DNA of 64,000 bases from an uncultured Nitrospiraceae bacterium (GTDB lineage: Bacteria > Nitrospirota > Thermodesulfovibrionia > Thermodesulfovibrionales > UBA6898): contig CAWEQH010000010.1 of the NCBI GenBank assembly GCA_963811165.1, positions 608,001-672,000 of the forward strand, read 5' to 3'. The notes under the pieces are model-generated. The model saw only the letters and a list, made by a program, of their open reading frames with translations, made no database searches and had not been told where the DNA came from. The translations under genes and the position numbers were made by a program. This document shows positions 1,120 to 5,342 of this stretch, piece by piece; the stretch's first letter is position 1; every line of letters starts with the position of its first letter.

Positions 1120-1535
1120 TTAAATGACATCTGTATACCGAAAATCATTAAAATCCAGGTCTGTTTTTCCGAGTAAATCTTTACGCATGGCTAAAACGAT
1201 CTCGCCAACAGCCTTGCGTCCTGCCTCCGGATTCGGCTGCTGTCCCCGAGATTCGATAACATGGACAATCATCCTATTTATGGCTCTTACGACATCATCG
1301 GAACAATAAAGCCACAATTTATATTGTTCTCCAAAAAATTGTCTTTTTCTTTCAGCAGAAGTTGTGCTGCCGACAAAGCCTCGCAAGAGGATCAAAAGAT
1401 TTGAATACTTTTCTTCTTTAAATTTTAGAATTGCTTCCTTTCGTTTTGATTGGATAGCGAAGTAATAAGCAAGGTAAGAGCTTGCCAATCCCGAAAGACC
1501 GGCCCAATGAAAAGGAATATGTCTTTAATATTCAT
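1120..1535 (-). pseudogene. Cassette gene for an N-terminally membrane-anchored hypothetical protein, 1-nt frameshift near 1495
   Basis: GGAG SD plus ATG 1535 (MNIKDIFLFIGPV) is out of frame with SGLASSYLAYYF...; span 416 nt = 3n+2. Confidence 0.6.
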
Positions 1536-1544
1536 ATTTTCTCC

Positions 1545-1615
1545 TCACAACGACCTGCATAAGGGGCTGACAGCACGTACAGTGCTGGCAGTATCTCTTA
1601 ATGCAATTGTTCTAC
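1545..1615 (-). repeat. attC site (71 bp)
   Basis: GTAGAAC-AATTG-CATTAAG..CTGCCAGCAC-TGTAC-GTGCTGTCAG..CTTATG-CAGGTC-GTTGTGA. Confidence 0.8.
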
Positions 1616-1630
1616 CCTTCTATCTGCTAT

Positions 1631-1774
1631 TTATTTCAGCTTTTTCTTGCATAATGGGCATGTATCACGCCAATTGCCGTGGCAGCTTGAGCAAATGAAA
1701 TGGCCCTTTTCGCAGGTTTTAGCCCTATCTACTTGTTTCTTTTTTCCACAAGCATCGCATACGCGTTCTGACAT
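1631..1774 (-). CDS. 47-aa stand-alone C3HC4 RING-finger-like protein (not in ORF track)
   Basis: AGGAGG SD; MSERVCDACGKKKQVDRAKTCEKGHFICSSCHGNWRDTCPLCKKKLK = C-x2-C-x11-C-x3-H-x2-C-x2-C-x7-C-x2-C. Confidence 0.8.
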   Translation of the reverse strand: MSERVCDACGKKKQVDRAKTCEKGHFICSSCHGNWRDTCPLCKKKLK

Positions 1775-1790
1775 TTTTACTACCTCCTTT

Positions 1791-2492
1791 TTATTTAGTT
1801 GATGATTGAGCAGGGTACAAATAGCTCAGAATATTTATTAGTGGCTTAAGAAAGAGAAAACGTGTCAAAGTCTTCAATACAATTGACTTTGAGATAGCCC
1901 TTGCTATCGGTGGGGATATCATATAATAGGCATTAATAAATGTGCGCCCAGGTTTAGACATACTAAGGACAGAATTACGATACTGTTGCAAATATAATAC
2001 TTCAGGAGCCATTGATGTCCCAAATGCGGCTGTTGCGATAAAGCAACCGCCAGACTTTGTGTCCTTTTTCTCAACGTGACTTAGTTTTGAGCCATCTTCA
2101 TTAATCTGGCTTAGTTGCGAACTTACTTCCGCAATTAAGCGTTTTGGTTCTTCTTCTGTCGGCTTCTGTTTTTCTGCGCGTTTAAAGAAAGCAACAGCCT
2201 CGCTGTATTCAACCCTCGCTTTTTCATTATTCCCTTTCATTTTAGCCATTTCGCCTTGCATTCTGTGCACATGTCCTTCTGTGAGAAGCTCCGTATAGTA
2301 AGAATCCCAAATATCTTCTCCGTCATTATCTTTTGGCATTGCACAACTCTCTAATTTGCCGATTTGCCTACGAATTTGGTCGATAGAATACATACATCTA
2401 CAATTTGGACAGTACTCATATCCTTGAATTTCCGGGACGTCAAATTCTTTACCACAATGGCACTTTGCGGGTACTGACGAAGTGTTGGTCAT
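1791..2492 (-). CDS. Zn-ribbon + TPR-like helices + CFI-box-CTERM domain protein (cassette)
   Basis: CHC...CPNC N-terminus; helical middle; GGCFIATAAFG...EV..L..YR..VL...GR.FI..YY..SPPIA C-terminus; GAGGA SD. Confidence 0.8.
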   Translation of the reverse strand: MTNTSSVPAKCHCGKEFDVPEIQGYEYCPNCRCMYSIDQIRRQIGKLESCAMPKDNDGEDIWDSYYTELLTEGHVHRMQGEMAKMKGNNEKARVEYSEAVAFFKRAEKQKPTEEEPKRLIAEVSSQLSQINEDGSKLSHVEKKDTKSGGCFIATAAFGTSMAPEVLYLQQYRNSVLSMSKPGRTFINAYYMISPPIARAISKSIVLKTLTRFLFLKPLINILSYLYPAQSSTK

Positions 2493-2537
2493 TTTATCCT
2501 CCTCTGAGTAAGATTGTTAAATGCTTTACTCGCTCTT

Positions 2538-2627
2538 TTATAACGAGATGGCTCACTTGCCGGGGCAACCAACCTTTGCTGCAAACCGCAGAGGCTATTC
2601 CCGGTCAAGTGGAGCCGGTTGTTAAGG
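2538..2627 (-). repeat. attC site (90 bp)
   Basis: CCTTAAC-AACCG-GCTCCACTTGACCGGG...CCCCGGCAAGTGAGC-CATCTC-GTTATAA; the upstream gene's TAA lies in R''. Confidence 0.9.
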
Positions 2628-3224
2628 CATTTCTCTATTCAGTAATTTCATCTTATCAAGCATTTTGATAGATAATTTTTTTTTGTTTGCCAAAAGCGCA
2701 ATTTGCAGGGCTGAAAGCATAGCGAGAGCATTTCCAGTATTAAGTAGCTCCACTATTTCGTCGTCTGTATAATTTGGTTCGAGGGTTTCGGCCTTAATTC
2801 TGCGGACAGCCTGCAAATATCCGCTATGAGTAAAGCTATTCATAGCAGCGTAGTTTTCCTTTTTTGCAGAAGAAAGTATTCCTTCTTCGAATCCTTTACA
2901 GCTTTCGATTTCCGTAATTAATGCTCCAAAGCTCTTCTCTAATTTATCTTGTTTGTATCTTGATATTTCTGTGTCAGTCGCGCACAGCTGCAGCCAAACG
3001 CCTCGGACGTAAGATTCAAACTCCAGCCGAATGAGGGAAAACGCGGATCCAAATAATTTATTGGCTATGAGAAGCAATATTGCTTTTTGATGTTCAAGTG
3101 CCACGAGCAAACAGGCAACTGCAAGTCGTCGTCTTTCATCAGATGGAACTGCAAGACCATCAAGTTCCTCGTCAAGCCACTGAATTAGCGTTTCGGAATT
3201 ATTAATAATTTCGGTTATATTCAT
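2622..3224 (-). CDS. DUF6988/DUF5677-like all-helical protein (HEPN-like, cassette)
   Basis: ALEHQKAI..L...GSAFSLIR..FESYVRGVWL and NSFTHSG motifs resemble this family. Confidence 0.65.
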   Translation of the reverse strand: MNITEIINNSETLIQWLDEELDGLAVPSDERRRLAVACLLVALEHQKAILLLIANKLFGSAFSLIRLEFESYVRGVWLQLCATDTEISRYKQDKLEKSFGALITEIESCKGFEEGILSSAKKENYAAMNSFTHSGYLQAVRRIKAETLEPNYTDDEIVELLNTGNALAMLSALQIALLANKKKLSIKMLDKMKLLNREMP

Positions 3225-3228
3225 TTGG

Positions 3229-3319
3229 CGTTAACGGGTGAATAAGTAGCGGGGGGCACCAACCATGAATGAAAAAAGGAAGAGGCCAATCCCCCGTCTG
3301 CTTGATGCTTTTGTTAGGA
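3229..3319 (-). repeat. attC site (91 bp)
   Basis: TCCTAAC-AAAAG-CATCAAGCAGACGGGGG...CCCCCCGCTACTTATT-CACCC-GTTAACG. Confidence 0.8.
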
Positions 3320-3333
3320 GATTTTTCATGTCT

Positions 3334-3789
3334 CTATTTAATGTAATAAAATACGATTTTCGGACAACCGTTAGGACAAACCAAGCTGACATTTCTTTGA
3401 GGCTCTATGGATTGTTGAAGGGTGGATCTGATATTTTTGTTGTCGAAGCAATTGCAACAAAGCTTATGTGCTTTTTCAGCCATACCCACATAATTCTTCT
3501 CTATATACGCAAAAACACCATTCCCAATTTCACGCCGTTCATAGTTTGCTTTTTCTGTACTCCAGTCTTTAAGGCGCATACATTCTTTTTCAAGTTCCTG
3601 TATTTTCGTCGTCAAAGAAGAATGTTCATTTTGTGCAGAGATAATCAGGCTGTTTGCTTGGATAATGTGGCCTTGAAGTTGTGCGATCTCGCCAGCATGC
3701 TTAGTAAAATCGCGGAGGTTGAGAAAAGATGATAATACACTTGTTGCGGCGTTTAAACTGGAAAGGGCTTGTGGTAGATATTCAATCAT
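3334..3789 (-). CDS. Coiled-coil protein with C-terminal Zn ribbon (cassette)
   Basis: AGGAGG SD; coiled coil then CCNC...CPNGC; cassette starts GTTAGGA and ends TCCTAAC (exact complement). Confidence 0.75.
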   Translation of the reverse strand: MIEYLPQALSSLNAATSVLSSFLNLRDFTKHAGEIAQLQGHIIQANSLIISAQNEHSSLTTKIQELEKECMRLKDWSTEKANYERREIGNGVFAYIEKNYVGMAEKAHKLCCNCFDNKNIRSTLQQSIEPQRNVSLVCPNGCPKIVFYYIK

Positions 3790-3846
3790 AATTTATTCCC
3801 TCCTTTTGGGAAATAGAAAGGTTGCTGGTATGAATAATTTACTGAC

Positions 3847-3865
3847 TCCTAACATGTAATATGCC
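3847..3865 (-). other. Putative attI-like site heading the four-cassette block
   Basis: GGCATAT-TACAT-GTTAGGA (7+5+7), no attC hairpin upstream. Confidence 0.55.
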
Positions 3866-3893
3866 AAGTTGGTTTTTTGTGATCCCTTGCAGG

Positions 3894-3922
3894 ATGATAG
3901 CATATTCATTACCTCTTGTGAA
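3894..3922 (-). promoter_or_regulatory. Pc-like sigma70 promoter facing the cassettes
   Basis: TTCACA-N17-TATCAT with TG extended -10, ~30 nt before the attI-like site. Confidence 0.65.
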
Positions 3923-4214
3923 GAAAAAAAGTCTATAGATCAGTAAGTGAATAATTTACTACTTGGCATTTACTGTTAATATGGACTAAAAGCCAACTTG
4001 GTAAAATCCGGTATTGTTCTTATCGTCGATTTCCGAGAGCAACTGAGAGGAGTTGAAGCAAGCGCTCAGATGCGATGTACAGGAAGAAATCGCACCCCCT
4101 TATAGTTTAACTAGGTGGGTGCAAAATGCAAAGGGCTTTGTTTAATATATACATATCTCACCGGGGTAATGTTGTTTTGTTCTTAAAGGCGGCGAGGTTT
4201 ACTTATTAATGTTT

Positions 4215-4553
4215 TCAGACACCATCGGATTTTGTTTCGATTGCGGTAAGATTTTTTGCATATTGAAGCATCTGTTCGAGTTCCTTGTGGGTAAGACCCT
4301 CAGCCTGAATGACCTTATCGTCTTTAGTTGTTATGATGACTTTTCGGCCATGACTAACTTTAAGGTATGCAATGATGACTGATGCGAGACCGCCCCACAT
4401 GGCGGCAGATTGCAATATTTCAATAACCCCGGAGGATGCCATCGGTACGCCAGCACGTTGTTCTCGCATAGTGTAGGGCACTTGTTTTTCGTTGAGCAGC
4501 GCGAGAAAAGGACCGAAGCCATCCTTGAAGAGATGAACAGGTAATGATTTCAT
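4215..4553 (-). CDS. Small protein resembling effector-associated constant component EACC1
   Basis: AAGGAG SD; GVIEIL...LASVIIAYLK...RKVIITTKD.KVIQAEGL..KELE pattern; family call by eye. Confidence 0.55.
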   Translation of the reverse strand: MKSLPVHLFKDGFGPFLALLNEKQVPYTMREQRAGVPMASSGVIEILQSAAMWGGLASVIIAYLKVSHGRKVIITTKDDKVIQAEGLTHKELEQMLQYAKNLTAIETKSDGV

Positions 4554-4561
4554 TTGCGCTC

Positions 4562-4580
4562 CTTTAACCAGTAATTAGAC
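4562..4580 (-). other. Second attI-like site
   Basis: GTCTAAT-TACTG-GTTAAAG directly before the SD of 4215..4553. Confidence 0.4.
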
Positions 4581-4641
4581 CGTTAATAGTACTAACACCG
4601 GTAATCCGATGTTAGTCAACCAGTTACCAGCCGGAAGCCGC

Positions 4642-4673
4642 CCGGAGCAGTTCGCTGCAGCGCATGGTTAGAC
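4642..4673 (-). repeat. Left half of a truncated attC
   Basis: GTCTAAC-CATGC-GCTGCAGCGAAC overlapping the BRCT gene stop; complementary L'/R' arm not found. Confidence 0.6.
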
Positions 4674-5342
4674 GTTTCTAATCGCTTCATCGAGAACTGC
4701 CTTCCAGTAAAGTTCTGAAATGATAATAGGCTTGCGACGCTGAAGCTTGAGAATCATCGCGTCGGAAATCTTGTTGCCATAACTACCATGCGCCCAATTC
4801 GGATTTGGGTCGTTGCCGATAACTAGGACGTCGGTCTTGTTGGTGATGTTGTCAGTTGTGGTGCCTCCCCGCGACGTGACAGCCACCTGACATTCCTTGC
4901 GTGTTCCGAACTCGAACTGGCCAGTGAAGCAAAACGTTGTGCCTGCAATGGCAACTTCCGGCAAAGGGTCGTCGAATGGCGAACCGTCCTTGAGAACATT
5001 CTCGATTACCTGCTCAAGTGCCTTGCGAGTCTTGGAGGGGGTGATTGGGCCTCGCTTAGGGTGCCAGTCGGCGGGGATCTCCGTGCGAGCAAGAACGGCT
5101 TTATCATGAGGGAGGAGGTCTGTGGAAACGTGCTCCTCGTCGCCAGTCGTATAAACATATGCTGTCCAGAGATGCTTGTTGGTGGGGTCGGAAAAAAGTC
5201 TGCCAATCATGCCGGAACAAAAGCCCTTAGTTAGTGGGCGACTAATGTCGATATCGAAAAAACGCAGCACCTTGAGTTGGCCGAATGTGGCAGGGTCGAA
5301 GTGCCAAGCTGGGTGGACTGATTTTAGTTGGTATGTTCTCAT
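4668..5342 (-). CDS. BRCT-domain protein (cassette)
   Basis: C-terminal FCFTGQF..GTRKEC...V..RGG...NITNKTDVLVIG....W.HGSYGNKI..A...IISE..W. Confidence 0.8.
   Translation of the reverse strand: MRTYQLKSVHPAWHFDPATFGQLKVLRFFDIDISRPLTKGFCSGMIGRLFSDPTNKHLWTAYVYTTGDEEHVSTDLLPHDKAVLARTEIPADWHPKRGPITPSKTRKALEQVIENVLKDGSPFDDPLPEVAIAGTTFCFTGQFEFGTRKECQVAVTSRGGTTTDNITNKTDVLVIGNDPNPNWAHGSYGNKISDAMILKLQRRKPIIISELYWKAVLDEAIRNV

Follow-up and report, generated by a model that had tools for sequence, protein, structure and literature searches.

RING fingers encoded by prokaryotes are usually interpreted as ubiquitin ligases, and the main survey of them is reportedly that of Burroughs et al. 2011. Here we analyse a stand-alone C3HC4 RING finger of 47 amino acids (aa), encoded on the minus strand at 1631..1774 of a 64,000-nucleotide (nt) stretch of contig CAWEQH010000010.1 from an uncultured Nitrospiraceae bacterium (the whole stretch is hereafter the window). 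Its gene lies behind that of a 233-aa CFI-box protein (1791..2492, minus strand) in a two-gene integron cassette, and it is the founding member of a family found across phyla that we call the mini-RINGs. The domain itself is known, but the modular setting in which it occurs here is undescribed; no description of the family was found in the literature on prokaryotic and stand-alone RINGs that we searched, and the 2011 survey with its supplement may list it. Our preferred explanation, which we hold tentatively and rate a little short of an even chance, is that the stand-alone RING serves as a small zinc adaptor, independent of ubiquitin-conjugating enzymes (E2), for whichever gene it is paired with, in mix-and-match conflict or stress modules.

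Several described systems resemble this locus in part. The ubiquitin ligase (E3) srfp of Caldiarchaeum subterraneum is likewise a small stand-alone prokaryotic RING protein, but it is a RING-H2 (C3H2C3), and the published account (PMC5654768) places it with ubiquitin, ubiquitin-activating enzyme (E1) and E2 and reports that its activity needs I30 and W58, the I30Q exchange abolishing ubiquitylation activity. The mini-RINGs are C3HC4 instead, and across the 99 loci compared below the loop-1 residue equivalent to I30 is Ala in 52, Val in 21, Ser in 11, Lys in 7 and Ile in one; the helix Trp is found in three, including the RING of our cassette, and E1/E2 neighbours in one. The SINA/SIAH-type and other eukaryotic C3HC4 RINGs (PF21362; PDB 9g0l, SIAH1; 4ayc, RNF8) share the C-x3-H spacing and a GH motif with the mini-RING, which differs in staying below the Pfam cut-off, in having no substrate-binding domain attached, and in its loop 1 fixed at 11 residues, its invariant Gly after Cys2 and its end five residues past the last Cys (98 of 99 sequences).

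As described in PMC7159879, the vWA-MoxR ternary conflict systems also have RING genes amid vWA, Hsp70/GrpE, DnaJ, TPR and tubulin-like genes; their RING-type E3 is, however, accompanied by JAB, E1 and Ubl-E2 genes (Ubl, ubiquitin-like protein), and no MoxR or GTPase core was seen in the mini-RING loci scanned. The Bil, Bub and type II CBASS operons, defined in PMC11601603 by E1, E2, Ubl or CD-NTase, and peptidase genes occurring together, resemble the one mini-RING locus with E2, JAB and E1 genes beside the RING, whereas none of these genes occurs in the cassette, its array or the window and no E2 was detected in the host. The 233-aa protein is a member of the CFI-box-CTERM proteins (NF041770) and differs from most of the best matches in the phylum by its shortness, its Cys-rich N-terminus and its lack of a clear transmembrane helix. 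Integron cassettes of unknown function are reported (bioRxiv 10.1101/2024.07.02.601719) to include phage defence, and ours is likewise an unknown-function cassette in an attC array, though with no defence-model match.

The mini-RING family and its predicted fold

The 47-aa product carries the ligands C6, C9, C21, H25, C28, C31, C39 and C42, all eight where a preliminary description of the sequence had placed them, in a spacing that fits the C3HC4 consensus, C-x2-C-x(9-39)-C-x(1-3)-H-x(2-3)-C-x2-C-x(4-48)-C-x2-C. Among the 8,295 ATG-started frames of 40-70 aa in the host genome it alone has this pattern. Its best Pfam match is PF21362 (Sina_RING, E 9e-5), and the named RING families all score below their cut-offs, namely Sina_RING (23 against 29.3), Prok-RING_4 (18.7 against 27), zf-C3HC4 (11.8 against 21) and NF041916 (14.7 against 600, far below, as with Prok-RING_4).

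The family was searched with an eight-sequence alignment. Homologues with the eight ligands, on which the preliminary description had let its proposal depend, do exist: 32 loci were kept of 70 pattern matches in species genomes, and 203 relatives were found among 516 pattern matches on metagenome contigs, of which the best 80 were kept. The resulting 112 loci form 99 groups, in which a few near-duplicates remain; many contigs are short, so that all partner counts below are lower bounds. Named hosts include members of Nitrospirae, Bacteroidota, Acidobacteriota, Chloroflexota, Proteobacteria, Cloacimonadota, Marinimicrobia, Verrucomicrobiota, Bacillota and Poribacteria, with one Heimdallarchaeon; the spread is patchy, with no mini-RING in 300 other genomes of the host phylum. 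The relatives are stand-alone, with a median length of 52 aa among 101 distinct sequences; the full set of eight ligands is retained in 93 of these, and a Shine-Dalgarno-like motif precedes 82. Since the scan patterns spanned the first four ligands only, the last four constitute an independent test. Mean column identity across phyla is 57%. Substitutions are mostly synonymous by simple counting, with nonsynonymous and synonymous proportions (pN and pS) of 0.057 and 0.82 against locus L043, and of 0.136 and 1.17 (saturated) against L011, the nearest named relative (81%). Judged by these sequence comparisons, the 47-aa open reading frame (ORF) is a true gene of a conserved RING family.

An AlphaFold2 model built with 99 sequences has a mean confidence (pLDDT) of 85. 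The leading Foldseek rows for this model are RINGs (RNF8; SIAH1, with the highest query TM-score, 0.69), none of them reaching E 0.001, and the PDB profile matches are likewise mostly RINGs. The model thus bears out the RING-like structure anticipated earlier: the 47-aa protein is predicted to adopt the cross-brace RING fold, in which it would bind two zinc ions. Net charge ranges from +2 to +8 across the family (median +6), and the N-terminal hairpin bears the near-invariant residues R4, K11, K13 and K19.

Ubiquitin enzymes and partner genes

Genes for E1, E2 or JAB proteins (ThiF being the E1 family) adjoin the RING in one of the 99 loci only, a Stygiobacter locus (L026:5001-8655) in which RING, membrane protein, E2, JAB and E1 genes follow in order; no Ubl was identified there. 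An E2 of this type occurs in one of the 32 RING genomes and in none of 350 other genomes of the phylum, and an E2-like match of any kind is found anywhere in five of the 32, standing beside the RING in L026 alone. The JAB protein of this locus carries a weak C-terminal J-domain match, and the run adjoins a primase-polymerase gene. In the host genome (95% complete) no E2 was found by four Pfam models, one PADLOC model (two of the five models being backed by positive controls) and tblastn, although divergent E2s could escape such a search. The host does have a ThiF/JAB pair, in what we read as a sulfur-carrier-like context, and a stand-alone JAB-domain gene (L159:1462-1968) between universal-stress-like and TonB-like genes with no E1 or E2 nearby. 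As the preliminary description had already stated, no E1, E2 or Ubl gene is visible in the window; family scans of the 8 array ORFs and the 52 other window ORFs were negative. At the loop-1 position of srfp I30 the 47-aa RING has Ala, not a large hydrophobic residue, and the L026 RING has Lys; Pro followed by Leu, Ile or Val in loop 2 is found in 95 of 99 RINGs, and the linchpin residue is Lys in 44, Gly in 26 and Arg in 4. Because ubiquitin enzymes adjoin the RING in a single locus, no host E2 was found and the loop-1 Ile is mostly replaced by Ala, a canonical E3 role for the mini-RING appears disfavoured on sequence grounds, and with it the suggestion, made in the preliminary description, of a protein-tagging system.

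The partner linked most tightly to the RING is a family of proteins about 115 aa long that lack annotation (for instance L047:1397-1753), present in 18 of the 99 loci and within 330 nt of the RING in 15. It occurs in eight of the 32 RING genomes, in single copy and always beside the RING, and is rare elsewhere (one weak match in 300, and none in 350, other genomes); no copy was found in the host genome. It has no match in Pfam, PADLOC or Atlas, and its predicted model is confident (pLDDT 89). One such pair, of bacterial type, lies in a Heimdallarchaeota genome (L022:756-1289) that has several E2 genes elsewhere.

A CFI-box gene, scanned for with a local hidden Markov model built from the initial matches, lies in nine of the 99 loci and directly upstream of the RING in seven, with gaps as small as 5 nt or overlapping. 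This amounts to 10 genes per 0.52 Mb of RING-locus DNA against one in the 3.66-Mb host genome, and L043/L044 is a second, independent attC-bounded CFI+RING cassette (upstream attC by eye). The recurrent linkage of the two genes, proposed earlier from this one locus, is thus found. Their description as a dedicated two-part system does not hold up, however, since no CFI-box gene lies within the examined DNA of 90 of the 99 loci, CFI-box genes without a mini-RING occur in 100 of the 300 further genomes from the host phylum, the linked CFI proteins are alike in the CFI domain only and differ elsewhere, and the 115-aa family is more tightly linked. The best 30 CFI matches of the phylum are mostly long and end in a hydrophobic stretch and a basic tail, whereas the RING-linked CFI proteins are without the hydrophobic tail; two CFI-box forms can be told apart in the phylum (L128-L157), most with this tail and a few without. 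In two Bacteroidota loci (L031, L035) a single run holds a CFI protein, the RING, the 115-aa family, a SPASM radical SAM protein and an amidohydrolase. None of the papers in the literature searched names the CFI-box.

Other neighbours recur as well: TPR/Sel1 genes in 20 of the 99 loci, vWA in 6, J-domain in 5, zinc ribbons in 3, and Hsp70/GrpE, TerB and HerA in 2 each. By a hand tally, 46 of 99 loci have at least one of TPR, CFI, the 115-aa family, vWA, J-domain, Hsp70/GrpE or TerB, and these classes occur in none of the 52 other window ORFs, which is a weak control. Five of 95 loci have an attC site 3' of the RING (none in 285 shuffles), and the attC-bounded RINGs, including L054 and L012, have at least five different partners; by this strict scan most RING loci are not integron cassettes. 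The neighbours of the RING are thus recurring yet interchangeable, rather than one fixed partner. In L040:169-5140 and L052:3976-7295 the mini-RING adjoins vWA and tubulin-like genes, in L047, L025, L011, L079, L082, L101 and L106 it lies within Hsp70/GrpE, J-domain and vWA clusters, some with TerB, and a further unannotated family of about 150 aa is encoded directly downstream of it at L057:227-676, L058:5313-5666 and L059:5196-5648.

The cassette and its surroundings

Both genes lie, as first described, between two attC sites whose cores are AAC/GTT and which fold as hairpins on the bottom strand, and so form one cassette of 993 bp (1551..2543, minus strand), although the R boxes of both sites depart from consensus. 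The closing attC is at 1545..1615 (minus strand; core 1549-1611; hairpin z -4.1, 0 of 200 shuffles) and that of the preceding cassette at 2538..2627 (minus strand; core 2542-2623; z -2.2, 8 of 200 shuffles), with a predicted crossover at 2543/2544. The 16-nt spacer between the genes (1775-1790) contains the Shine-Dalgarno motif AGGAGG (1783..1788, minus strand) 8 nt before the ATG of the small ORF; gap and motif are seen in the sequence just as the preliminary description reported them.

The 233-aa protein has its CFI-box domain at residues 150-215 (NF041770, 79.5 bits against a cut-off of 40), which upholds that part of the Zn-ribbon/TPR-like/CFI-box architecture first given for it. Its Cys-rich, Zn-ribbon-like N-terminus (C11, C13, C28, C31, C33) scores below cut-off (PF08792, E 0.0065), and no TPR was detected on the protein itself; its middle may be helical and TPR-like, as a TPR is detected on the 399-aa homologue P0011, which is 63% identical over the N-terminal part. 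The protein is short, and its most hydrophobic 19-residue stretch (hydropathy 1.44) makes no clear transmembrane helix. A contig of metagenome run X3 carries, at window position 2100, a variant of the gene with an 8-nt insertion, whose frame would end before the CFI domain; the 139-aa protein P0010 is consistent with this variant.

The pair, inferred in the preliminary description to move as one unit, forms one cassette here. One contig from run X3 follows the window over 2031-2543 and departs from it at the predicted crossover, which may reflect different flanks there; the whole cassette is spanned by no contig. A contig from run X5 retains the junction of CFI end and RING with a diverged RING, the residue being the same in seven of the ten next codons by hand reading. 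Cassette G+C is about 40%, against 51% for the genome.

The cassette belongs to a co-oriented, CALIN-like array (1120..5342, minus strand, outer limits approximate) that has no adjacent integrase and neighbours tRNA-Val and tRNA-Asp. An intI gene (G000:C10:705643-706938; TIGR02249, 395.9 bits) lies on the same contig about 96 kb from the array, in a complete integron (G000:C10:705643-716100) whose own array holds small membrane-protein and toxin-antitoxin-like cassettes and has one attC similar to window 3232-3315. Next to our cassette, the one at window 2622-3224 encodes a DUF6988 protein that matches the PADLOC candidate defence model PDC-S52 (E 8e-30). Further along, a second zinc-finger-like cassette of the array holds a 151-aa gene (3334-3789) whose product combines a coiled coil with a Cys-rich motif at its C-terminus (weak zf-RING_14 match, E 0.026), and the product of a cassette-like gene (4668-5342) ends in a BRCT domain behind an N-terminal domain of unknown kind.

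Alternative explanations and significance

We prefer the adaptor explanation to that of a classic ubiquitin ligase because the RING has many different partners and ubiquitin enzymes are almost never adjacent to it; independence from E2 is suggested by that single adjacent locus, by E2-like matches in only five of the 32 RING genomes and none in the host, and by Ala in place of Ile. RING and upstream partner would be made together from one message, and the RING, needing no E2, would act as a zinc cross-brace adaptor that docks either to the membrane or to helical repeats of the partner. Its contacts would be the basic surface and a Gly/aromatic loop that most relatives have (by our own loose motif, 68 of the 77 with a long loop). 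The partner in this cassette would be the CFI-box protein, predicted at the inner membrane face; a peripheral inner-membrane assembly, we infer, would fit the basic surface, the Gly/aromatic loop and the missing hydrophobic tail of the linked CFI proteins. Such a module may serve in conflicts or under envelope stress, phage being the likeliest adversary, with the RING as sensor or scaffold, not ligase. A conflict role of the cassette is likely in our analysis, given the overlapping neighbour pool, the reports of defence cassettes, the patchy spread, the integron setting and the adjacent PDC-S52 match.

Several observations weigh against this explanation. PADLOC 2.0 (2023 library) gives no match at E 0.001 for either cassette protein, the 47-aa member has the short, 7-residue loop and lacks the Gly/aromatic insert, and a membrane role for the CFI-box is conjectural. 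Part of the E2 surface is kept in the 47-aa RING (Trp at C6+4, Pro-Leu in loop 2, linchpin Lys), and L026 is a real RING-E2-JAB-E1 run (E2 at PADLOC E 2e-12). The background for partner enrichment is a single genome window, and about half of the loci are without recurring partners, many of these contigs, not all, being short.

Alternatively, the 115-aa family might be the true partner of the RING in a core complex, leaving the RING here as a detached copy behind a CFI gene with little or no function. The occurrence of this family in 18 of the 99 loci (no more than 330 nt from the RING in 15), its single copy always beside the RING in eight of 32 genomes, its rarity elsewhere and its absence from the host favour such a complex, which we nevertheless think rather unlikely: 24 of the 32 RING genomes (incomplete metagenome-assembled genomes) show no copy, the L019 copy has an internal stop, and the RING of our cassette is under purifying selection relative to L043 and L011, two loci without the 115-aa family nearby. 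Improbable, too, is a genuine E3 role, in which the RING would activate a divergent E2 whose gene lies elsewhere, with the upstream TPR/CFI protein as substrate receptor. The RING fold, the loop-2 Pro-hydrophobic pair (95 of 99), the linchpin Lys or Arg (48 of 99), the L026 RING upstream of E2, JAB and E1 genes, and the RING-type E3 with E1, E2-Ubl and JAB in the vWA-MoxR systems (PMC7159879) would suit a ligase, whereas five models and tblastn find no host E2, the host ThiF/JAB pair looks sulfur-carrier-like, the L026-type E2 is found in one of 32 RING genomes, and the RING of L026 itself has Lys in place of the Ile, with no Ubl identified at that locus.

The dedicated two-part system of the preliminary description, in which the RING would bind the CFI domain, seems to us quite improbable. 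It gains from the seven loci with CFI directly upstream, from the independent cassette L043/L044, from the junction retained on the X5 contig beside a diverged RING and from the missing hydrophobic tail, and it suffers from the 90 loci without CFI in the examined DNA, from the 100 of 300 phylum genomes with CFI and no RING, from L011, the nearest named relative, which has no CFI gene, and from the close 233-aa variant that loses the CFI domain by the 8-nt insertion. Finally, the RING could act freely as a zinc finger binding nucleic acid or another anion, regulator- or antitoxin-like and in need of no partner at its locus; the positive net charge, the near-invariant basic residues of the N-terminal hairpin and the position of the RING as last gene behind very diverse genes would agree with this, but its neighbours are non-random, drawn repeatedly from one pool, and we consider such a role very improbable.

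Whichever partner it serves, the mini-RING is small enough for expression and mutation, is highly conserved, and occurs without E1/E2/JAB genes and once with them; it therefore offers a direct test of E2-free RING function and of recruitment to E2. Its linkage is the first functional lead for the CFI-box domain, the analysis brings out a second unannotated family in the 115-aa proteins, and the two-gene cassette is a minimal unit suited to phage challenge. We speculate further, as a bolder and somewhat unlikely proposal, that this 5-kDa RING family, which at least ten lineages of bacteria share with an Asgard archaeon, and the 115-aa protein, for which no fold is recognised, are the common connector of an undescribed, inner-membrane, mix-and-match defence network with TPR, CFI-box, J-domain, vWA, Hsp70 and TerB modules. 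In such a network the RING would do immune work without ubiquitin enzymes, it would be drawn now and then into an E1/E2/JAB operon, and integrons would shuffle its two-gene minimal forms. If true, this would show RING fingers at work in immunity independently of ubiquitin enzymes.
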